Positions 2,622 to 22,990 of a DNA stretch of 24,869 nucleotides are shown piece after piece (the stretch's first letter is position 1; the number at the start of each line of letters is the position of its first letter). The translations under genes were made by a program, and so were the position numbers. This DNA comes from a virus (taxonomy: Duplodnaviria; Caudoviricetes). The stretch spans positions 1-24,869 of the IMG/VR virus record IMGVR_UViG_3300032328_000502; one strand, given 5' to 3'. The notes under the pieces are model-generated. The model did no database searches and was not told the DNA's origin. It worked only from the letters and a program-made list of their open reading frames with translations.

Positions 2622-3029
2622 ATGAATCCAAAGGTAACAATAGTAGGGCGTATTGGAACAGATCCAGAAGCAATTGGAACATCTGGTGTCCGTATGCGTG
2701 TAGTAACAAATGATCGCATTAAGAATCCACAAACAGGTGCATGGGAAGATCGTGATACATCTTGGTGGACAGTAAAGGCTTGGAAGACTCTTGCAGATCA
2801 GGCTAAAGCTACCCTTAAGAAGGGTCAAGAAGTAATTATTGTTGGAACAATCTATCAAGAAAGTTGGACAGATAGTTCTGGTGCAACAAAAACATCTTAT
2901 GAAATTAATGCTGAATCACTTGCATTGACAATGCATAGTTTAACTAAGGATATGCCAGGAGTTGTTCATTCAGCACCAAAGGTTGCTTCTGAGCCAACAG
3001 AGGATCCTTGGAAAAAGGTAAATGTCTAA
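2622..3029 (+). CDS. ssb: Single-stranded DNA-binding protein
   Basis: VTIVGRIGTDPE, WEDRDTSWWTVKAW, LKKGQEVIIVG: actinobacterial-type OB-fold SSB motifs. Confidence 0.92.
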   Translation: MNPKVTIVGRIGTDPEAIGTSGVRMRVVTNDRIKNPQTGAWEDRDTSWWTVKAWKTLADQAKATLKKGQEVIIVGTIYQESWTDSSGATKTSYEINAESLALTMHSLTKDMPGVVHSAPKVASEPTEDPWKKVNV

Positions 3030-3240
3030 TTTTGATGATCTAACTGATGATCAAAAGTCACAGGTCATGAACTTAGTTATTCTAACTGTGAAAGAAATCA
3101 GAGAGCAAATTGCTAATGATATTGAGTATACCTATGAGGTCTGGTCAACTCATGGCAAAGCAAAAAGTCGTAGAACTAAAAAAGCATTTGAAGTCTGTGC
3201 AGATATTGCAAGAGGCTTAAATGAAGTTGTAGACAAATAA
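3022..3240 (+). CDS. Hypothetical phage protein
   Basis: 72-aa ORF overlapping the ssb stop. Confidence 0.7.
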   Translation: MSNFDDLTDDQKSQVMNLVILTVKEIREQIANDIEYTYEVWSTHGKAKSRRTKKAFEVCADIARGLNEVVDK

Positions 3241-4955: not shown

Positions 4956-5029
4956 GCACCAATAGCTCAGTTGGTCAGAGCCCCAAACTCATAATTTGGT
5001 CGTCGTAGGTTCAAGTCCTACTTGGTGTA
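4956..5029 (+). tRNA. tRNA with CAT anticodon (elongator Met or Ile2)
   Basis: Full cloverleaf: GCACCAA/TTGGTGT, GCTC/GAGC, CCAAA-CTCATAA-TTTGG, GTAGG-TTCAAGT-CCTAC; no encoded CCA. Confidence 0.93.
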
Positions 5030-5033
5030 CGAT

Positions 5034-5104
5034 GTGGATATTGCATAGTGGTAGTGCGTAACCTTGCCAAGGTTAATGTGCGGGTTCGATTCCCGCTATC
5101 CGCT
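5034..5104 (+). tRNA. tRNA-Gly(GCC)
   Basis: GTGGATA/TATCCGC, TAACC-TTGCCAA-GGTTA, GCGGG-TTCGATT-CCCGC, U73. Confidence 0.93.
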
Positions 5105-5106
5105 CT

Positions 5107-5463
5107 ATGAAAACATGTAGCAAGTGTAAACTTGTTTTAGATTACTCAGAGTTTTCACCTTCTTCTGGTGGTAAATATTTAAGACCTGAGTGTAGAAAGT
5201 GTGCAAAAAAATTAACAAAGCGTAGAGAAGAATTAAAAAAAGAGTTTGGTTATCCTGTTAATGATTACATTTGTCCAATATGTTTAAAGAATGAAGAAGA
5301 GTTAAAGGGTACTGGTGGAAATGCTAGTATTTGGGTGGTAGATCATAACCATAATACAGATGAGTTCAGAGGACATATCTGCCATAACTGTAATCGTGGT
5401 CTTGGTGTTTTTCAGGATGACATAGAAAGACTTGAGAGAGCAATAAAATATTTATCTCTGTAA
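5107..5463 (+). CDS. Endonuclease VII-family (beta-beta-alpha-Me) nuclease, putative homing endonuclease
   Basis: CPIC...VDHNH...RGHICHNCNRGLG plus an N-terminal CxxC/CxxC. Confidence 0.85.
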   Translation: MKTCSKCKLVLDYSEFSPSSGGKYLRPECRKCAKKLTKRREELKKEFGYPVNDYICPICLKNEEELKGTGGNASIWVVDHNHNTDEFRGHICHNCNRGLGVFQDDIERLERAIKYLSL

Positions 5464-5525
5464 CTCAGCGGAAGAGTGACACCCTTCTAAGGTGTAGGTC
5501 GCAGGTTCGAATCCTGCCAGGGATG
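5454..5525 (+). tRNA. tRNA-Arg(TCT)
   Basis: ATCTCTG/CAGGGAT, ACACC-CTTCTAA-GGTGT, GCAGG-TTCGAAT-CCTGC; A20 and G73 Arg identity elements. Confidence 0.93.
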
Positions 5526-5554
5526 CTATAATAGATTAAAACAAAGGGGTAATT

Positions 5555-6514
5555 TTGGCACACATAGTTTTCTTGGGTAATTTTGAAGTAGAGTATAGTA
5601 GTGAGAACCATCATGCTAAGTCTTTAGAGTCTCTTGGTCATACCGTTGAAAAGCTGCAAGAGCGTGTAGCAAGAACAGAAGTCATACTTAACAGTGCACT
5701 AAATAGCGATCTATTCATATGGGTACATACTCATGGATGGAAAACAGTTGGAAAGATTACGATGGACTCTGTTTTAGCCAGATTAAAAAATGCTGGTGTT
5801 CCAACAATGACATACCATCTTGATTTATGGTTTGGTCTAGATAGACAACAGGACTTAAGCGGAGATAACTTTTATAAAACCATTGGACATTTCTTTACAG
5901 TTGACAAGCTAATGGCTGATTGGTTTAATGAAAATACTCAAGTTAAAGGACACTTTTTACCTGCTGGAGTTTATGATAAAGAGTGTTTTGTACATAAAGA
6001 TTATAATAAAAAAGAGTTTGATCAGGATATTATTTTTGTTGGCAGCAAAAGATACCATCACGAGTATCCATATAGACCACAACTAATTGAATACCTAAAG
6101 TCTAAGTATGGTAAAAGATTCTTGCATGTTGGTGGAGATGGTGATACTGGAACAATTCGTGGTGAAGCATTAAATAGAATATATGCACGTAGTAAGATTT
6201 CTATTGGTGATAGTCTTAACATAGGATTTAAATATCCACACTACACAAGTGATAGATTGTTTGAAAGTACTGGTCGTGGTGGCTTTACTATCTACCCTCG
6301 CATTGAAGGTCTTCAAGAATATTTTGAAGATGGAAAAGAGATCGTGTTTTATGAGCATGGCAACCTAGAAGATCTATCAAACAAGATAGATAAGTATCTA
6401 GAAAATGATGTTGAGCGTGAGAAGATCCGTATGGCTGGGCATGAAAGAACAAAGCAGGAGCATACCTATATGCATAGGTGGTCAACCATTATGAATGAGT
6501 TGGGAATAAAGTGA
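5555..6514 (+). CDS. CgeB-like / Glyco_trans_1_2 glycosyltransferase (GT-B)
   Basis: DIIFVG, IYARSKISIG, SDRLFES, FEDGKEIVFY, HTYMHRW; TGCTATAAT promoter at 5524-5532. Confidence 0.85.
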   Translation: MAHIVFLGNFEVEYSSENHHAKSLESLGHTVEKLQERVARTEVILNSALNSDLFIWVHTHGWKTVGKITMDSVLARLKNAGVPTMTYHLDLWFGLDRQQDLSGDNFYKTIGHFFTVDKLMADWFNENTQVKGHFLPAGVYDKECFVHKDYNKKEFDQDIIFVGSKRYHHEYPYRPQLIEYLKSKYGKRFLHVGGDGDTGTIRGEALNRIYARSKISIGDSLNIGFKYPHYTSDRLFESTGRGGFTIYPRIEGLQEYFEDGKEIVFYEHGNLEDLSNKIDKYLENDVEREKIRMAGHERTKQEHTYMHRWSTIMNELGIK

Positions 6515-7365
6515 AGTATGTAGTAGTTGTTCCTTATACAGTACAATCCGTAATGGATGAGTTTATGTCAACATGTAAGCTTGAAAATGTTTTAAAGATT
6601 GATAACACTACAAATAATATTGGATGTATGGCAAGCCATAACCTTGGTGTTGATAAGATGTATGAAACCGACTCCGACTGGCTTATTGTGATTAGCCCAG
6701 CAATTCGTTTTGGTGCTGCTGGAGGTTTAGACTTTGTAGAAAAATTAAAAACCACTAAGCATAAGATTGTAGAAAGCATGGGTGTTTTTGGCTGGCATTT
6801 AATTGCCTTTCATAAAGATGTTATAGATAAAGTTGGAAAGTGGGATACCAACTTTACTCCATATGGATATGATGATCTTGATTATAGTATTAGAATTCAA
6901 AAAGCTTTTCCATTTGCATTTTCAGATGAGGAAAAGTTTGCCGTTAACTCTGAAAAAATGCTTCTTTGGACAAAAGAATTAGTTGATGTAAAAGATACAA
7001 TAATGTCACATAGCATGAAGCTAAATAAAATAAATACAGATGATCCACACCATAGAAAATACTACGAAAAAAAGTGGGGCGCAACTCCTGGAACAGGAGA
7101 ACATTTGCTCAATACATATGAACACCCATTTAATAATCCTGAAAATGATATAAAATATTTTTCTAATGATTACTATAATGAATGGATAGAAAAAAAATCA
7201 ACTAAAAACAATACAAAATTTAAAGAAACATTAATCACATGTACAAATTGCAGTAATACTTTCAAATATGATTCAACAAATATTGAAAGCAATATAGAAA
7301 TAACCACTTGTGGTGTTTGTAATCCAGTAATTGTCTACCATAACGGATTGAGGGAAATAAAATGA
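6511..7365 (+). CDS. GT2-like glycosyltransferase with a C-terminal bL31-like zinc ribbon
   Basis: NIGCMASHNLG, VGKWDTNFTPYGYDDLDYSIR, YYEKKWG; C-terminal ETLITCTNCSNTF...ITTCGVCNP. Confidence 0.8.
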   Translation: MKYVVVVPYTVQSVMDEFMSTCKLENVLKIDNTTNNIGCMASHNLGVDKMYETDSDWLIVISPAIRFGAAGGLDFVEKLKTTKHKIVESMGVFGWHLIAFHKDVIDKVGKWDTNFTPYGYDDLDYSIRIQKAFPFAFSDEEKFAVNSEKMLLWTKELVDVKDTIMSHSMKLNKINTDDPHHRKYYEKKWGATPGTGEHLLNTYEHPFNNPENDIKYFSNDYYNEWIEKKSTKNNTKFKETLITCTNCSNTFKYDSTNIESNIEITTCGVCNPVIVYHNGLREIK

Positions 7366-8075
7366 CAGAGATGGTAAAAGCCGTTATTAACGGAGAGTTT
7401 GAAATTGTTTTGCCTAAGCATCGTGCAGATAGACCAGATTGGTATCTAGAGCATGGCTGGGAAAAACTAAGACTAAAGTCAATGCACGAAAATATTGGTA
7501 AAGGCGATGTTGTTTATTATGTTGGTGCTGAAGAGGGAGAGATGCCTGCCCTATGCCAAATGTGGGGTGCAGAAGTAGTTTTATTTGAACCTAATCCAAA
7601 AGTTTGGTCACACTTTCCACTACTATGGAGTGCAAATGGTTTAGAAAAACCAATTATTTCTATTCCTGGATTTGCATCAGATAAAGATAATGATCTTGCA
7701 CGTATTTATTATAATGAGTTCCCGCCAGAAGCAGATTCACCAATTGAGGCTGCACATGGATTTAAAGAACTACAATATGAAGCAGATATGTATGGTCAAA
7801 CAAAGATTGACACTCTAGTATATGAAAAAGGAATTAAGCCACCTACAGCAATATCTCTTGATGTTGAAGGTAGCGAATGGCGTGTACTTGGTGGTGCAGA
7901 AAAAGTTATGAGAGAGTTTAGACCAAAGATCTGGTTATCTGGTCATCCAGAGTTTATGATGATGTATTGGCAAGAATACCTTTATGATCTTAGACAATTT
8001 ATTAAAAACATTGGTTATATCGAACACTTAATAGACTACCAGCATGAGGTTCATTTTTATTATGAACCAATCTAA
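7362..8075 (+). CDS. FkbM-family SAM-dependent methyltransferase
   Basis: YYVGAEEG, FEPNP, ISLDVEGSEWRVLGGA. Confidence 0.85.
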   Translation: MTEMVKAVINGEFEIVLPKHRADRPDWYLEHGWEKLRLKSMHENIGKGDVVYYVGAEEGEMPALCQMWGAEVVLFEPNPKVWSHFPLLWSANGLEKPIISIPGFASDKDNDLARIYYNEFPPEADSPIEAAHGFKELQYEADMYGQTKIDTLVYEKGIKPPTAISLDVEGSEWRVLGGAEKVMREFRPKIWLSGHPEFMMMYWQEYLYDLRQFIKNIGYIEHLIDYQHEVHFYYEPI

Positions 8076-8916
8076 ATGTTATTTGTATTCTTTTAGTGAA
8101 CAAGATTGTGCTGCTGATAAATGGGATTACGGTTTACTAAAAGAAATATTTGATAAGTATAAAGTAGATCAAATTAAGGTAACATCCATTCCCAAAGCTG
8201 ATCGTGGTTTTGTTGTAGTTCCTGGACCTCAAAACCTAGGCCATGAAAAAGAGGTTAATAATCAAATACAAAACCTTTCAAGAGTTGTTTTATTTATTAC
8301 AGGGGATGAAGAGGGTAGGTTTGACATAAGTAAGATTAGTCATCCTAATGCTGAAATATGGATTCAATACCCTCATGAAAAACACCAAGGCTATAATAAA
8401 ATACCAATAGGTGTACCTCAGCATCTCAAGAAGTTGGTTCCTAACTATCCTTCTAAATATCATGACTTGTATTTTGGTGGACAGATCACTCATCCTAGAC
8501 GAGAACAGTTGGCCGATGCTATAAAGGACATGCCAAATGCCCTTTTTAAGCCAACAGAAGGCTTTGCACAGGGAGACAAGCCCTTAGACTACTATCGCAT
8601 ACTGGCCAGTGCCAAGATTGCTCCTGCGCCCTCTGGGGCGGTAGTTATTGACTCTTTTAGGCTCTTTGAGGCCATAGAGATGTTATGCTTGCCAATTGCT
8701 GATAGGGTTGACGCAAAGGGCAATACCATAGAATTCTATCAAGATGTTTTTGGATACGAGATACCAGTTACTCACGTATCTGACTGGTTTGAGTTACATA
8801 AATTGACCCCTAAGTTATTGGAACAATATCCAAACAATATGCACAGGGTAGTTTCTTGGTGGATAAAATATAAGAGAGATTTAGGTATTAAGATTATGAG
8901 ACAACTAAATGGGTAA
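8062..8916 (+). CDS. Exostosin (GT47)-like glycosyltransferase (start 8062 or 8044)
   Basis: LYFGGQ, SAKIAPAPSG, SFRLFEAIEMLCLPI. Confidence 0.7.
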   Translation: MNQSKCYLYSFSEQDCAADKWDYGLLKEIFDKYKVDQIKVTSIPKADRGFVVVPGPQNLGHEKEVNNQIQNLSRVVLFITGDEEGRFDISKISHPNAEIWIQYPHEKHQGYNKIPIGVPQHLKKLVPNYPSKYHDLYFGGQITHPRREQLADAIKDMPNALFKPTEGFAQGDKPLDYYRILASAKIAPAPSGAVVIDSFRLFEAIEMLCLPIADRVDAKGNTIEFYQDVFGYEIPVTHVSDWFELHKLTPKLLEQYPNNMHRVVSWWIKYKRDLGIKIMRQLNG

Positions 8917-9640
8917 AGACGATGTAACAATTATTGTTGTCACCTCTGTGTTGCCAAGCCATCCAGACACAACAATTCTTGATGAAACTATTAGAGAAGT
9001 TCGGATCCATTTTCCAGAAAATGAAATCATTTTGCAAATTGATGGCCTGCGTGAAGAAAGATTAAACAGAAAAGCAGACTATGATGAGTTTAAAAACCGT
9101 GTTCTTTGGAAGTGTTTGCATGAATGGAAAAATGTTTTACCAATAATTTTTGACAACCATAGTCATCAGACAACAATGATGAAAGAAACAGTTGATTTAA
9201 TACAAACATCTGCCATGCTTTATGTTGAAGGAGATGCTCCCCTTACTGGTGATAGACATATTCACTGGGAAGAATGCTTAGACATGTTGGAGTTTGGTGA
9301 AGCAAACACAATTAGGTTTCACTTTGAAGCAGTAATTCCTACAGATCATAATCACCTTATGCTTGAAAAGAAAGGCAACTTTTTAAAAACAATTCAGTGG
9401 AGTCAAAGACCTCATTTATCTTTAGTTAAATATTATAAAGATATTATTCTTCCCTTTTCTGATGAAAAAACTTTCATTGAAGATAGATTTCATGGCAAAG
9501 TTCAAGATGATGGTTGGAATGCACATAAACTTTGGATATACCATCCAGATGGAGATATAAAGCGTTCATATCATTTAGATGGACGTGCGGGTACTAGAAA
9601 GTTTACAGGAGATGATGAAGCATGGGGGCTAACTGAATGA
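8909..9640 (+). CDS. Putative GT-A fold glycosyltransferase
   Basis: N-terminal beta strand TIIVVTS..PSHP, LYVEGD (DxD-like), YHLDGR; coupled within the GT operon. Confidence 0.55.
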   Translation: MGKDDVTIIVVTSVLPSHPDTTILDETIREVRIHFPENEIILQIDGLREERLNRKADYDEFKNRVLWKCLHEWKNVLPIIFDNHSHQTTMMKETVDLIQTSAMLYVEGDAPLTGDRHIHWEECLDMLEFGEANTIRFHFEAVIPTDHNHLMLEKKGNFLKTIQWSQRPHLSLVKYYKDIILPFSDEKTFIEDRFHGKVQDDGWNAHKLWIYHPDGDIKRSYHLDGRAGTRKFTGDDEAWGLTE

Positions 9641-10671
9641 GACTTGGTATTATTGCAAGGTCTGATAATACTGGACTAGGAAATCAAACTAGAGAATTAG
9701 CTAATATGCTTAATCCAACCAAGATTATGCTCATTGACTCAACACCTTTTAATAAAAACAATCAGCATCCAGAATGGTATGAAGGATATAATATACATCC
9801 AGTAAGGGGCTTTCCAAAGTCTAATGATATAACTGAATTTATTCGTGGGCTAGATGTTGTATTGACCTGTGAAACATTTTATAACCATCAATTTATAGAT
9901 CTTGCAAGACGTGCTGGTGTTAAGACTGTTTTACAGTATAACTATGAGTTCTTGGATCATTTAAATAATAAAGATTTAGCACTGCCAGATGTATTCCTAG
10001 CACCAAGCTTATGGAACTTTGAGCGTATGACTGAGTTATTTGGTAGTAAAACTATTATTTCATATTTACCGCCACCAACAGACCACACATTGTTTGATGG
10101 CATAAGAGAAAATAACTACTCAAAACACCATAATAGAATACTTCATATCGGAGGCAAAGCTGCTTCTGAGGATAGAAATGGAACAAATTCTGTTGTTGAG
10201 ATGCTAAAGTATTCACAAGAAGATTTTCAGGTTGTTATCAGAACACAGACTCCGCTATCTATACATTGTGATAATCCAAGACTTATTATAGACAACAACA
10301 ATTCAGAAAGCCGTGAGGCTATGTATGATGGTTTTGACGCAATGGTTTTGCCAAGAAGATATGCTGGACTATGCTTGCCAATGAATGAGGCTCTAATGTC
10401 TGGTCTTCCAGTATTTATGACAGATATTTCACCAAATAACAAGATACTTCCACAAGAGTGGTTAGCGCAATCTAATAAGATTACTACTTTAAGAACAAGA
10501 GCAATACTTGATGTTTATGCTGCTGATCCAAGAAACCTTGCACGTATTGTTGATGGATACATGAAAGAAAAAAACACAACTGCTCAAAAGGAAAAAGCTT
10601 TTAATATTGGAACAAATAACTTTTCTGTTGAAAATCTAAAACAAAAGTATCTAGATATTTTAGAGAAATAA
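9637..10671 (+). CDS. GT4-family glycosyltransferase
   Basis: MVLPRRYAGLCLPMNEALMSGLPVFMTD signature. Confidence 0.88.
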   Translation: MRLGIIARSDNTGLGNQTRELANMLNPTKIMLIDSTPFNKNNQHPEWYEGYNIHPVRGFPKSNDITEFIRGLDVVLTCETFYNHQFIDLARRAGVKTVLQYNYEFLDHLNNKDLALPDVFLAPSLWNFERMTELFGSKTIISYLPPPTDHTLFDGIRENNYSKHHNRILHIGGKAASEDRNGTNSVVEMLKYSQEDFQVVIRTQTPLSIHCDNPRLIIDNNNSESREAMYDGFDAMVLPRRYAGLCLPMNEALMSGLPVFMTDISPNNKILPQEWLAQSNKITTLRTRAILDVYAADPRNLARIVDGYMKEKNTTAQKEKAFNIGTNNFSVENLKQKYLDILEK

Positions 10672-11849: not shown

Positions 11850-12758
11850 TCACTGATATCCATATACATCTTTAAAATTGACCCCTGTTATTTTTTCATA
11901 ATCTTCCAATGCTCTTACTGAGCCTACACCATAAATGCCAGACTCTATACCACATAAGATTATTTTTTGTTTTTCCCAAGATTTTAACTCTAAGTGTTTC
12001 CAAGATACTGTTTTAAAATTTTCAGCATCCCATACTTTTTTATATTCTGGTCTAAGATAAAAATGATATAATATAACTTTTGATGGTGAATATATGTCCC
12101 ATCCTCTAGTCCATGCTCTTACTGCAAAACATAACTCTTCACCAAAAAAACTAATGTCTGGGTCATATGGAACTTCATTAACTATATTTCCAGTAGTAAA
12201 AATAAAACCAGCCAACACAGTTGTTGACTCTTCAGGATATTTTTTTTGACGATCACTAAACTCTACTCTTTTAGCTGTCCAGTTATTTCTTCTGGTAAAC
12301 AAAGGCTTTTGCTTAGTAGGATATGCAGGCATCTTCTTATTATTTTTAATAAAAAATATAGAATTATCTGGTTCAATGGTAAATGGAGCAGGGAAAGCAG
12401 AAAGAATAATTTTATCATTATTGGCAATCTGTTTTGCCTTATCGTGTTCATCTATACACATAAGATCCCAGTCTTTTTCAAACAATGTATGTGAATCTAT
12501 TTGCAAAAAGTATTCTTGATTATTATATGCTTTCATTGCAATCGATCTTGCATACCCCGCTCCCCTTGCTTCTTTTGGGTGCATAGTTATTAAACTTAAA
12601 TTTGGAACCCAAGATAAATCTGGGGTACTATCTTCAAAGTCTTGAATAACTATTGAAAAATACAGTTCATCTGGATTTGCAGCATTGCTTATTGCAGATC
12701 TAATAGTCCTAGTTAGTTCTGGATCACGATAGCTTGCTATTGATATAAATATGCTCAT
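11850..12758 (-). CDS. GT60-like (Skp1/Gnt1-type) protein GlcNAc-transferase
   Basis: IFISIASYRDPEL, YFLQIDSH..F...WD, FFGEE...RAWTRGWDIYSP. Confidence 0.85.
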   Translation of the reverse strand: MSIFISIASYRDPELTRTIRSAISNAANPDELYFSIVIQDFEDSTPDLSWVPNLSLITMHPKEARGAGYARSIAMKAYNNQEYFLQIDSHTLFEKDWDLMCIDEHDKAKQIANNDKIILSAFPAPFTIEPDNSIFFIKNNKKMPAYPTKQKPLFTRRNNWTAKRVEFSDRQKKYPEESTTVLAGFIFTTGNIVNEVPYDPDISFFGEELCFAVRAWTRGWDIYSPSKVILYHFYLRPEYKKVWDAENFKTVSWKHLELKSWEKQKIILCGIESGIYGVGSVRALEDYEKITGVNFKDVYGYQ

Positions 12759-18991: not shown

Positions 18992-19510
18992 CTAACCTTG
19001 AACAAAGTCAATTGGACCAATACATGATGAGCTAAATTCAATAGCACATCCTAAAGCAAGAGCAAGCCTACGCTTTGGATCTTTATGATTTTGGGTAGCA
19101 TGAAGAGACCCAATAGCGTAGTCTGCCCCTGATCCTATGGCAACATAATCTCTGTCATAGGAAATCATAGTAAACCCTTCTGCTTCATGTTCATAGAGTT
19201 TACCTTTTATACCAATAAGAAGGGATATTTCACTATCTTTACCGCCAATATCCCATTCGTTATAAAATTCTTTAAGTGATTTTAAAAACTTTCCATGCAT
19301 AAACTTATCTACATTACCCTCTGGAATTGGTGGAATAAAATTATATTGAATAATTTGTGCATCAAATGTACCAGCATACCCAAAAACATAAGGACCAGAT
19401 TTCCATATTTTTGGTTTGTCAATTGAAACAATATAGCTGCCTTCAGAGGCACCACGTTCACCAGCAAGGTGAACCTTGCCATCTTTCATTATTCCTGCAA
19501 TACAAGTCAT
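18992..19510 (-). CDS. Ntn-hydrolase, HslV/proteasome-beta-like peptidase
   Basis: N-terminal Thr (MTCIAG), K..K, GYAG, AIGSGADYAIGSL. Confidence 0.8.
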   Translation of the reverse strand: MTCIAGIMKDGKVHLAGERGASEGSYIVSIDKPKIWKSGPYVFGYAGTFDAQIIQYNFIPPIPEGNVDKFMHGKFLKSLKEFYNEWDIGGKDSEISLLIGIKGKLYEHEAEGFTMISYDRDYVAIGSGADYAIGSLHATQNHKDPKRRLALALGCAIEFSSSCIGPIDFVQG

Positions 19511-19876: not shown

Positions 19877-20058
19877 TATTCTTGCTCCTTATTTCTAAAT
19901 GGACTAGTAATTATCCATATTGCTGTTGTTACCATAATTCCATATCCAACAACAGTTTTTGCACTACCGTCCAACACTACCCAGGCAATAAACATTCCAA
20001 GGAGGGTCCATGCCTGATCGATCATATCTTTTACTATATTTTTTACTATTCTTACCAT
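19876..20058 (-). CDS. Small 2-TM membrane protein
   Basis: WTLLGMFIAWVVLDGSAK; coupled to both neighbours. Confidence 0.75.
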   Translation of the reverse strand: MVRIVKNIVKDMIDQAWTLLGMFIAWVVLDGSAKTVVGYGIMVTTAIWIITSPFRNKEQE

Positions 20059-21806
20059 TTTCTTCCTCCTCTTGAAACTGGTGAATTGGCTCCTGAGCCT
20101 CCACCAGAACTTCCCCCACCAGAACCGCCGCCTGTAGCCCCTCCTGCAGCGACTGCAGCTGCATTAATTGCTGCTCCCGCAGCAACAACTGTTGCAACAA
20201 CCATCTCTGTTGCTTCTTCTCTTTCTTCTGTGGTCATATCTGCACCAATGCTTCCAAGTGCTTGTAGTGCTGCACCTGGATCTGAAAACGCTGCCTCCAG
20301 TAATGCTCCTGGATCTTGTACTAGCTCAATATTTGCAGCAACTTCAGCAGTAATAACAAGAGCATTTCCATTTTCGTCAGTACGAACCTCAATTGGCGTG
20401 GATGCTGGAAGATCAGAATATGATACTCCAGATGCTTGTACTTGTGCTGCTGAGATAGACTCTCCTGGTTTTAGGTCTGCAACTAATGATGTTACAACTG
20501 CAGCAACTTCTTCCTTTGATAATTCTTTCCCAGCCTTTGCTTCTGCAGCAATCTTTTCTAGCCTTTCTTCTTCTGCTTTTTCAGCAGCAATACGATCTGC
20601 TTCTTGCTTAGCTTTTATTTCTGCTGCCAAGCGATCAGATTCAGACTTTGCTTTTGCTTCTGCAGCTAATTTTTCTTCTTCATCTTTTTTCTTTGCTTCT
20701 TCTGCGGCAAGTCTTTCTGCTTCAATCTTAGCTAAACGCTCAGCCTCAGCTTCTGACTCCGCCTTAAGACGAGCTTCTTCTTCAGCCTTTGCCTTTAGCT
20801 CAGCAGCAATTCTCTCAGCCTCAATTTTTGCAAGTCGTTCTGCTTCCGCCTTAGCCGCTGCTTCTGCTTCAAGTTTTTGTCGTTCTATTTCTGCCAAACG
20901 TGCTGCTTCTGCAATTGCTGCTAATCTTTGTCGCTCAAGTTCTGCTAGTCTTTCTTGTTCAGCAATTGCTGCAAGTCTCGCTGCTTCTTGTTGGGCTGCT
21001 AGTAATGCTGCTGCCTCTGCTTGAAGTCTTGCTTCTTCTTTAGCCTTGGCTTCCGCTTCAGCCTTAAGTCTTTCTTCTTCCGCTAAGGCTTCTATCTCTG
21101 CTGCAATTCTTGCTGGATCATTAACATAAACTGAACTAATATTTGATATATTAGAATACACTCCTAATGTATCATTATCTGATCTTACATTAAATGAATA
21201 TACCTTATCTAAGCCATCTGTGTTTACTACTGATATTGGAATTGTAATAGATGTATTTAATGCATTTGAGTCTCCAACATTACCTGTTGCAATGCCCCAA
21301 CCATTTGACCCAGTAGACCAACTTATGGCATACCTTTCAACTGATACATTACTAACTGTTGGTGCCGACCAAGATAACAAGACTGATTGATTTACTTCAT
21401 CAATTACTGCAATAAGATTAGATGGACTATTTAAAATCAACGGCTCTGATGCTGGTATTGGCTCAATTGATAATACTACAGAAAGTTTTTTGTATGTGCC
21501 ACCGCATGGATCACCAAAAATACCGTTGGTTGCAGAAATAACTAATGATTCATTTTTAATATATGCTTGAACAATAGATGTTGAATTTGCTGCGTGACAC
21601 TTGCCAATAGTGTAATTTGCTGGAGTTCCATATGAAGCAAATGCTACACCATGAATTTTAAATCCTTCTGGAGCTGATAGCCTGAGTACTTGGCCTTCTC
21701 CAACTGTTGCTGATATCTCAGTAATTGACCCATTAGCATTATTATTAAGTGCTAATGGAAATAAAGAAAGAATTGCTACTAAAACAATACGCAAAAATAC
21801 TTTAAT
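20052..21806 (-). CDS. Exported surface protein: signal peptide, SUEL-type lectin, FN3, coiled-coil stalk, C-terminal anchor (start ATT 21806 or TTG 21794)
   Basis: FASYGTP...CHA...FGDPCGGTYKKL (SUEL lectin); PSNL...LSWSAP...YSFNVRS (FN3); A/E/K/R repeats; hydrophobic Gly-rich end. Confidence 0.8.
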   Translation of the reverse strand: MKVFLRIVLVAILSLFPLALNNNANGSITEISATVGEGQVLRLSAPEGFKIHGVAFASYGTPANYTIGKCHAANSTSIVQAYIKNESLVISATNGIFGDPCGGTYKKLSVVLSIEPIPASEPLILNSPSNLIAVIDEVNQSVLLSWSAPTVSNVSVERYAISWSTGSNGWGIATGNVGDSNALNTSITIPISVVNTDGLDKVYSFNVRSDNDTLGVYSNISNISSVYVNDPARIAAEIEALAEEERLKAEAEAKAKEEARLQAEAAALLAAQQEAARLAAIAEQERLAELERQRLAAIAEAARLAEIERQKLEAEAAAKAEAERLAKIEAERIAAELKAKAEEEARLKAESEAEAERLAKIEAERLAAEEAKKKDEEEKLAAEAKAKSESDRLAAEIKAKQEADRIAAEKAEEERLEKIAAEAKAGKELSKEEVAAVVTSLVADLKPGESISAAQVQASGVSYSDLPASTPIEVRTDENGNALVITAEVAANIELVQDPGALLEAAFSDPGAALQALGSIGADMTTEEREEATEMVVATVVAAGAAINAAAVAAGGATGGGSGGGSSGGGSGANSPVSRGGRKW

Positions 21807-21910: not shown

Positions 21911-22990
21911 TTACTTCTTTAGAGCAACCTTAGCTTTTGGATTCTTTGCATTCCACTTCTTTGCTAGAGCATTATACTCTGCAATGTAAGTTGCCTTTGC
22001 AAGATCTGCTGCTGCTTTTGCTGTTGCTGCTGTTGCATCATATGCTGACTTAACATCTGCAAGAGCCTTATCTGCTGCTGCCTTTGCAGTTGCTGCTGCT
22101 GACTTAGTTGCATCATGTGCAGCCTTTTCAGATGCAAGTGCTGCAGTTGCTGCTGCAAGTTCTGCCTTAAGTTGTGTAACTTGAGCATTAAGATCAGAAA
22201 CTACAAACTTAGCAATTGCTGACTTTACAGGTGCTGAAAGACCAGTTACAACAGTTGCTGCATTTGCTCCTGTTACCACCGCTGTAATTTCTCCTGCTAC
22301 TGCTGTAACAAGTGCCTCAGTCTTTGAACCAATTACTGTCACTGGAGTTACGCCTGCTGCAGAAGTTACTGCTGAAGTTGTAAATGTCTTTGTAACTGAA
22401 TTATCAGCAAAAGAAGAACCGATAAGCGTTACAGAAAGACTCTCTGATGCTACTGGATTACCAAATACATCTGTTGCAGATGCTGTAATTGTTGGAACTG
22501 TTCCAACTGCTGTTGATGCAGGCACTGAAAGTGCAACATTGTGTGCTGAACCTGCTGTTCCCTGCACATAAACGATTGTTGAGTATGCACCATTTACAAT
22601 TGTTACTGAACCAACTGTTGTTGAAGTTGTGTATGCGTAAACTGTCAAAACAGTTCCTGCTGAAGGTAAAGATAGTGAAGGAACTCCACTAGCGGTTGTA
22701 ACTGTTGCAGGTGTTGCAGTATTTAGTGCTGATACCAACTTAACTGTTGATGAAGCAGTAAAAACAACTGATGTTCCTGTGACTGCTGTTGCTGCAATAG
22801 CAACCGATGTGCCTGCTGTAATTGTATTTGCTGAAGGCACTGCTACCGTCTTTGGTGCTGCAGATGTTGTTACATTTGTTACACCATCAACTGTTACTAC
22901 AGGTGCTGATGCGTTTGATGATGTAGCCATTAGCATTGTGCCAGTCAGGGCTGCAGCGATGACTAAGCTGATCTTTTTAAATGAATTCAT
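21911..22990 (-). CDS. Secreted Ala/Thr/Val-rich surface protein with an Ig-like region and a C-terminal coiled coil
   Basis: Signal peptide MNSFKKISLVIAAA; TITASATDVFGNPV (Big-1/invasin-like); AAGGAG SD. Confidence 0.75.
   Translation of the reverse strand: MNSFKKISLVIAAALTGTMLMATSSNASAPVVTVDGVTNVTTSAAPKTVAVPSANTITAGTSVAIAATAVTGTSVVFTASSTVKLVSALNTATPATVTTASGVPSLSLPSAGTVLTVYAYTTSTTVGSVTIVNGAYSTIVYVQGTAGSAHNVALSVPASTAVGTVPTITASATDVFGNPVASESLSVTLIGSSFADNSVTKTFTTSAVTSAAGVTPVTVIGSKTEALVTAVAGEITAVVTGANAATVVTGLSAPVKSAIAKFVVSDLNAQVTQLKAELAAATAALASEKAAHDATKSAAATAKAAADKALADVKSAYDATAATAKAAADLAKATYIAEYNALAKKWNAKNPKAKVALKK

Follow-up and report, generated by a model that had tools for sequence, protein, structure and literature searches.

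The window, a 24,869-nt stretch of a Caudoviricetes record, encodes a 284-aa protein in which a predicted glycosyltransferase (GT) is followed by a C-terminal domain that sequence comparison confirmed as a true homologue of the zinc-binding core (residues ~9-43) of the type-A ribosomal protein bL31. This fusion was seen solely in a cassette for glycan building, in uncultured lake phages that probably infect actinobacteria, and the domain is kept by selection yet optional. A preliminary description of the window had proposed that a ribosomal-protein domain was captured, and the sequence, the profiles, the predicted fold and a single origin of the fusion bear this out. As for its role, the truncated core is likely an optional docking module, plausibly in the phage glycan-building machinery and possibly on the ribosome, but not a ribosomal protein.

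The fusion protein and its bL31 core

Relatives of the fusion protein (Table 1) reached 79-91% identity along its full length, and the gene was seen at 17 viral loci. The peptide quoted in the preliminary description was recovered as K236-P272 of the ORF at 6511-7365 (+), encoded by 7216-7326, and the junction between GT and domain was spanned without indels by contigs from three further runs of a single study, which are possibly non-independent of the window.

Table 1. Features of the fusion gene and its surroundings in the window (aa, amino acids; res, residues)
Feature	Position	Strand	Basis or remark
Cassette gene, GT-B glycosyltransferase (Glyco_trans_1_2)	5555..6514	+	Pfam E 6e-27; synteny
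GT-bL31 fusion gene, 284 aa	6511..7365	+	GTG start overlaps upstream stop; own stop overlaps next ATG
Predicted GT-A-fold glycosyltransferase domain, res 1-217	6511..7161	+	PHROG 2456, AF2, Foldseek
Helix (res 220-232) and flexible Lys/Asn linker	7162..7218	+	pLDDT <50 at res 232-236
bL31 Zn-binding core, res 237-272 (bL31 ~9-43), three strands	7219..7326	+	Profile and predicted fold
Cys244/247/267/270 of the core	codons at 7240, 7249, 7309, 7318	+	ORF translation
Short non-bL31 tail replacing FYTG and the 30S-binding arm	7327..7365	+	Overlaps start region of next gene
Cassette gene, FkbM-family methyltransferase	7362..8075	+	Pfam E 1.6e-10; TIGR01444 above cut-off
Cassette gene, RXYLT1/GT47-like (weak match)	8044..8916	+	Pfam RXYLT1_C E 7e-5, under cut-off
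Cassette gene, conserved 243-aa protein, no family match (Pfam, NCBIfam, PHROG)	8909..9640	+	In 17/17 and 27/28 loci
Cassette gene, GT-B glycosyltransferase (group 1-like)	9637..10671	+	PHROG 2170 E 1.5e-9; Pfam E 2e-4
Nearby GT60-type (Pfam GlcNAc) transferase, opposite cassette	11850..12758	-	PF11397 E 1e-58

The preliminary description had recognised a bL31-like zinc ribbon on a glycosyltransferase, and profile and decoy comparisons revealed that the likeness exceeds both chance and that of generic zinc ribbons. On the whole protein, the NCBIfam model PRK00019 (L31) matched at E 1.4e-4 and Pfam returned no L31, just two weak zinc-ribbon families; on the domain fragment, PRK00019 reached E 2.6e-6 and Pfam Ribosomal_L31 was the best family (E 9e-4, 19.8 bits), above the generic Zn_ribbon_5 at E 6e-3, though the curated cut-offs were missed (Pfam, 19.8 vs 27 bits; TIGR00105, 17.8 vs 38.35; PRK00019, 27 vs 70). 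Across the aligned phage domains, 20/20 matched PRK00019 and 19/20 matched Pfam L31. In a sequence search of the PDB, 11 of 12 matches were L31, and the domain profile retrieved 37 PDB sequences, the top 29 of which were all L31 (best E 7.7e-9; first non-L31 at E 0.22). Searching 1.84 billion representative proteins with this profile gave 656 matches at E <=0.001; among the matches listed besides one family member, 145/149 fitted the bL31 Cys pattern, the other four being three Cys-repeat proteins, which were set aside, and one truncated bL31. Furthermore, shuffles with the Cys residues fixed never reached the real score (0/200 decoys for each of 15 domains, taken from the 20 aligned and scored with a profile of 42 actinobacterial bL31, three of them from genomes flagged unpublished). 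The predicted fold of the domain (AF2) comprised three strands, as in the bL31 N-domain, and structure searches with it returned ribosome chains at weak scores, namely in 50/50 Foldseek rows shown (best E 9e-3; many identifiable as L31) and in 15/16 VIA rows (Z <=4.3).

The four putative Zn-ligand Cys residues (CxC/CxxC ... CxxC) and a Phe were invariant in 20/20 aligned domains, across both subclades of the fusion. The preliminary description had compared the domain with a bL31 pattern, the four Cys of which are present; the window, however, has CxxC where most bL31 (96%) have CxC, and the His of the CHP motif is Asn. That a generic zinc ribbon came to resemble bL31 by convergence is very improbable. 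The domain is short (36 aa) and stays below the curated cut-offs, and no fold match reached E 0.001 (best VIA Z, 4.3), yet the L31 entries at the head of the PDB profile matches, the bL31 pattern in nearly all listed matches of the large protein search, and the decoys, always below the real score, have already largely refuted such convergence.

For the N-terminal part, the GT assignment came from PHROG 2456 (E 1.9e-7) and a GT-A fold match, and Pfam gave none. The AF2 model of residues 1-217 had a GT-A fold (mean pLDDT 83), with K4CP (chondroitin polymerase), the PBCV-1 capsid GT and STIV A197 as its best Foldseek matches (E 7.5e-5 to 4e-4, TM 0.3-0.5), and its Atlas structure neighbours carried GT2/GT7C families on 11-42% of members. 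The GT domain showed the conserved motifs GY(D/E)DLD, MxHS, KWG, and PF, and D122, D124, and H167 were invariant across the GT family (120 proteins). At residues 62-64 (window 6694-6702, +), which we take to be the site of the DxD metal-binding motif after strand 4, S-A/P-A replaced the expected DxD in 20/20 fused forms, and among 100 unfused homologues these positions held Ser in 95, Ala in 83, and Ala in 91. The absence of DxD is a family-wide trait, in fused and unfused forms alike, and the family is possibly metal-independent or has an altered GT-A active site; sugar transfer by the fusion protein is its predicted function.

Origin, host and cassette of the fusion

In total, 233 homologues of the fusion protein were found and 120 were listed. 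The survey of orthologues for the domain, as suggested in the preliminary description, located it in 19/120 listed homologues of one clade, representing 843 member sequences by cluster size, with fragments among them; the other listed homologues either stop after the GT or have different extensions. In a quick tree built from the GT part (120 proteins; P0065 was left out as chimeric), the 20 domain bearers, including the window's, fell into one clade (SH-aLRT 98), the sister group of which consists of domainless GTs ending just past the helix that precedes the domain. At the sequence level, a single origin of the fusion within one GT clade was shown. The fusion clade splits into a CxxC and a CxC subclade with ~53% identity between them, and the motif was kept by 55/56 listed members of four domain-bearing clusters vs 0/14 in a domainless cluster. 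Scanning viral sequences for the domain yielded 37 loci, 15 of them on contigs already in the set; of the 22 read directly, 20 were in GT frames, one was cut by the contig end and one was frameshifted. In the locus L053, a short deletion between A-runs (~290-310) puts the bL31 domain out of frame, either by natural loss or by assembly error.

The domain tolerates loop insertions of four and eight residues, the eight-residue one (P0017, P0018, P0020, and L017 at 907-1086) resembling a tandem duplication of the third strand. P0009 looked recombinant, its N-terminal half resembling the CxxC subclade and its C-terminal half the CxC subclade, and P0123, on a 505-base contig, had a differing N-terminus and may be a chimera. 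Two further proteins (P0080 and P0096, 442-443 aa) joined the same GT to an FkbM methyltransferase domain (PF05050), suggesting that the GT C-terminus accepts different fusions.

No other fusion partner or standalone phage form was seen in two near-length and 21 longer matches (7999 candidates were scored in the longer search), and relatives of the fusion were found neither in cultured phages nor, by word patterns, in GTDB genomes. Host bL31 used as a query against viral contigs found six loci; of the three that were read, two encode longer bL31 that lack the Cys motif and the third is a fragment, none of them in the GT cassette as far as the sequence covered. Standalone, longer bL31 of this Cys-less, type-B-like kind lay on the viral contigs L199 and L200 (both 3001-3240), of which L199 was read. 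Five related phage contigs (fragments 24-47% complete) carried no second bL31. In a 36-column tree of 108 cores, the phage domains sat on a long branch and no donor lineage was singled out; 42 actinobacterial bL31 (including Nanopelagicales) scored 29-41 bits, no better than the 39-48 bits of other bacteria.

The window terminase was 53% identical to those of Streptomyces phages of 125-134 kb, and phage genomes near 107 kb are estimated because related contigs were rated 24-47% complete. The window also holds genes for WhiB, a described actinophage marker (PMC10202952), and SSB as well as three tRNAs, at ~36% G+C. At this G+C content, a freshwater actinobacterium such as Nanopelagicales is the probable host. 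The full-length profile was run on 301 genomes of the presumed host order; 73 matched, each time with the C-terminal part included, and all of the matches that were checked (9/74) were host rpmE. Other genes of the window included one for a 580-aa protein (20052-21794, -) with SUEL lectin-like and FN3-like domains (both sub-cut-off) followed by a long Ala/Glu-rich coiled coil, and a proteasome-subunit-like (Ntn) gene (18992-19510, -) that also occurs in three related contigs. The genes for tRNA-Met, tRNA-Gly, and tRNA-Arg, together with an endonuclease VII-like gene, lay within the glycosyltransferase region (4956-5526, +).

All full-length domain-bearing loci (17/17) were in the cassette, where the RXYLT1-like, 243-aa, and GT-B genes followed downstream and FkbM was present in 15; the neighbours found in only some loci included sugar epimerases, methyltransferases, and a Stealth-like protein. 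As a control, domainless alleles were examined at 28 loci, comprising 25/31 of one set (six partial loci being omitted) and 3/17 of another, the other 14/17 of which were contigs with the domain that had been covered before. The domainless GT occupied the same cassette slot in 27/28 loci, the exception (L252) being distant and rearranged, and its neighbours included the RXYLT-like gene in 27/28, the 243-aa gene in 27/28, and FkbM in 24/28 loci, with some neighbours 80-90% identical to the window's. A bL31-like ORF was present in 0/28 domainless loci. Because domainless alleles fill the same slot without such an ORF, the domain is an accessory and not a required step.

The PF11397 transferase is presumably a GT60 enzyme and a candidate initiator of protein O-glycans. 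Based on this neighbour and the fold relatives of the GT, a protein-linked glycan is the suggested product, and the cassette presumably assembles glycans on virion or surface proteins of the phage. DNA or the cell wall, as proposed in PMC10202952, may instead be the acceptor. A 359-aa Ser/Thr/Ala-rich protein with a signal-peptide-like start (21911-22990, -) adjoins the terminase and is a candidate glycan acceptor; it found no match in five host genomes, and a look-alike lies beside the terminase in L197.

Possible roles of the captured core

Residues kept and lost were assessed by comparing the 20 phage domains with 145 bL31, a set picked by the phage profile and hence biased towards the phage domain. 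The phage domains kept F/Y, E, V/I, G-N-x-F-K, a Ser (100% in both sets), L/I, V/I, and mostly the Pro (70%), and lost M-K, I-H-P (79/84/92% in the 145 bL31; absent or rare in the 20 phage domains), the acidic residue two before the third Cys, and the His and F-Y-T-G after the last Cys (H, F, Y/F, T, and G at 90-100% in bL31; absent or rare in phage domains). The C-terminal arm was lost as well, as the protein ends 12 residues past this Pro and has no 30S-binding arm (bridge B1b/B1c). Since MKxxIHP, H-FYTG, and this arm are missing, the phage domain is presumably unable to act as bL31 or to form a subunit bridge. In E. coli, deletion of bL31 residues 2-8 abolished autorepression and partly reduced complementation, which the authors ascribed to lower 50S affinity (PMC7297116); because of this effect on autorepression, the phage domain probably cannot repress rpmE either.

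Selection on the core was estimated from pairwise comparisons of related sequences, with wide intervals. Core dN/dS was 0.22 in both subclades when Cys-anchored (8 and 13 sequences; intervals 0.10-0.52 and 0.11-0.39) and 0.42 (0.22-0.86) when alignment-based, with comparators of 0.12 and 0.09 for the GT and 0.11 (0.04-0.19; 13 sequences) for host rpmE. The intervals exclude 1, showing purifying selection on the core at the level of these estimates; its point estimates lie above those of the GT and of host rpmE, with the intervals of phage core and host rpmE overlapping. Moreover, one sheet face (T240, I242, F251, Y253, S255, I262, I264, and T266) was conserved and mostly hydrophobic, reading T-V-F-T-S-I-V-V in the host, T-I-F-Y-S-I-I-T in phage A, and V-V-F-S-S-L-V-T in phage B. 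On this face, which was assigned by strand alternation rather than by coordinates and was set after the bL31 column comparison, pN was 0.014 and 0.063 vs 0.134 and 0.167 on the other face. It is presumably the face with which bL31 packs on uL5. Host R25, Y34/F34, and E36, kept in 13/13 Nanopelagicales bL31, were replaced in the phage domains.

That the core is a nearly neutral passenger, kept in frame merely because an unfolded tail would harm the enzyme, is improbable. Domainless alleles coexist with domain-bearing ones, the L053 deletion shifts the domain out of frame and core dN/dS is above that of the GT, as a passenger would suggest; against this, the Cys residues and the Phe are invariant although the subclades have diverged to ~53% identity, nearly all listed cluster members (55/56) retain the motif, the dN/dS intervals exclude 1, and a stop codon could drop the tail at no cost. 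Less probable still is a zinc store or a Zn/redox switch tuning the enzyme. Type-A bL31 has been described as a loosely bound Zn store (PMC5137454) and the Cys residues are invariant, but one Zn per enzyme would make a small store and the conservation of the sheet face would be left unexplained.

Of the roles considered, a docking module repurposed within the glycosylation machinery is plausible, if somewhat short of probable. The domain would bind Zn and fold as a three-stranded ribbon on a flexible linker, and its conserved face would pack on the enzyme's own tail, a cassette partner or the acceptor protein, thereby stabilising or positioning the enzyme. The preliminary description had raised two functions, ribosome docking and a repurposed structural module, and the second is narrowly favoured because the folding unit is kept, its flanking motifs have disappeared on either side, and cassettes lacking the domain persist. 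However, the non-ribosomal partner is hypothetical, a host-like conserved face would also be expected from retained uL5 binding, and the phage core and host rpmE have overlapping dN/dS intervals. In addition, the kept part lies in the N-domain that binds uL5 and 5S rRNA (PMC7530986, PMC7297116), and a phage protein with a bL12 domain was detected in 70S ribosomes (PMC6375957).

[quoted passage not shown] Variants of this tethering would have glycans built near new phage proteins, native bL31 displaced with no bridge to the 30S, or a ribosomal component modified. In bL31, the N-domain contacts uL5 and 5S rRNA and the C-terminal part the 30S head (PMC7530986, PMC7297116, PMC9966373, PMC5137454); the kept segment belongs to the N-domain that binds uL5, and the arm that was lost is what binds the 30S. 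Consistent with tethering, one face is conserved and host-like with the same Ser in every sequence of both sets, Zn-type bL31 occurs in 5/5 Nanopelagicales genomes, bL31 is loosely associated and exchangeable (PMC7297116, PMC5137454), and single-peptide evidence placed a fused phage bL12 in ribosomes (PMC6375957). On the other hand, the loss of MKxxIHP and H-FYTG would put affinity well below that of resident full-length bL31, a 235-residue enzyme stands in place of an N-terminus that may contact 5S rRNA, and the cassette persists domainless in 28/28 loci examined. Since domainless alleles also fill this slot, the pathway does not need docking. The central protuberance also lies far from the exit tunnel, which weighs against tethering. 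Complex prediction with Planktophila uL5 (31-row alignment) and the domain (20 rows) scored 0.00 in two runs, in which the partner fold was uncertain and the controls were unfolded, and it was counted neither for nor against binding.

The fuller scenario, in which the captured core takes the bL31 site on uL5, removes the bL31 bridge to the 30S and puts the GT on the host ribosome, glycosylating a ribosomal component or nascent phage proteins, is somewhat less likely than the tethering itself. Glycosylation of ribosomal proteins by the fusion enzyme has no support in the present analysis, and a search for ribosomal-protein glycosylation in bacteria found no paper under that phrase.

Significance and comparison with known systems

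The fusion represents a traceable capture of part of a ribosomal protein by a phage, fixed on a predicted enzyme, and the natural alleles with and without the domain in one gene slot provide a ready-made control pair for captured ribosomal domains. If the domain docks on uL5, it would make a ribosome-targeted phage glycosyltransferase, probably in phages of abundant freshwater actinobacteria, and no such enzyme was found described in the literature searched; if the captured core acts as an enzyme-targeting tag, a ribosomal protein would have been reused for that purpose; and if it does not dock on uL5, a ribosomal zinc ribbon would have been reused as a general module. Moreover, the JGI automatic annotation names many 274-301-aa members (cluster of P0006) 'ribosomal protein L31', and such naming can inflate phage ribosomal-protein counts and mislead surveys.

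Among viral glycosyltransferases of capsid proteins, the PBCV-1 enzyme (2p72) and STIV A197 (2c0n) share the GT-A fold and are among the best fold matches, whereas the phage GT is only 7-10% identical to them (TM 0.3-0.4) and has no DxD where one is usually found. Viral GT gene clusters are a further common feature of the phage GT, these enzymes and the glycosylation of mycobacteriophage virions (Freeman et al. 2023, as cited in PMC12619734).

Both larger phage proteins with ribosomal domains and aquatic viral contigs with bL31 are known (PMC6375957). The preliminary description knew of no GT-bL31 fusion, and the literature searched, which left most subscription papers outside its scope, held no report of one, so that the fusion is apparently new. 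The 15 uncultivated aquatic viral contigs with bL31 genes (pN/pS 0.14; PMC6375957) likewise place bL31 sequence under purifying selection in aquatic phages; they are described as bL31 genes, with no GT fusion mentioned in the accessible text of that paper, and some of them may be the fusion.

With type-A bL31/RpmE (PF01197, TIGR00105, PRK00019), the phage domain shares the core (~9-43), the four Cys, the predicted three-strand fold and the pattern F/Y-x-E-x-x-V-x-C-x(1,2)-C-G-N-x-F-K-x-x-S ... L/I-x-V-x-x-C-x-x-C-x-P; unlike type-A bL31, it forms the C-terminus of a 235-aa enzyme, without MKxxIHP, H-FYTG, and the 30S-binding arm. The closest precedents are the bL12 domain in Salmonella phages FSL SP-058/076 and a bL9 N-domain with a replaced C-terminus (Mizuno et al. 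2019, PMC6375957), the bL12 fusion having been seen in ribosomes as one peptide and being absent from the tagged pull-down. As in those proteins, a ribosomal domain lies inside a larger phage protein of which domainless homologues exist. According to the text available from that study, the partner domains there have no known function and the bL12 interaction residues are kept, whereas GT-bL31 pairs its domain with a predicted enzyme of a conserved cassette and has lost the bL31 motifs that flank the core.
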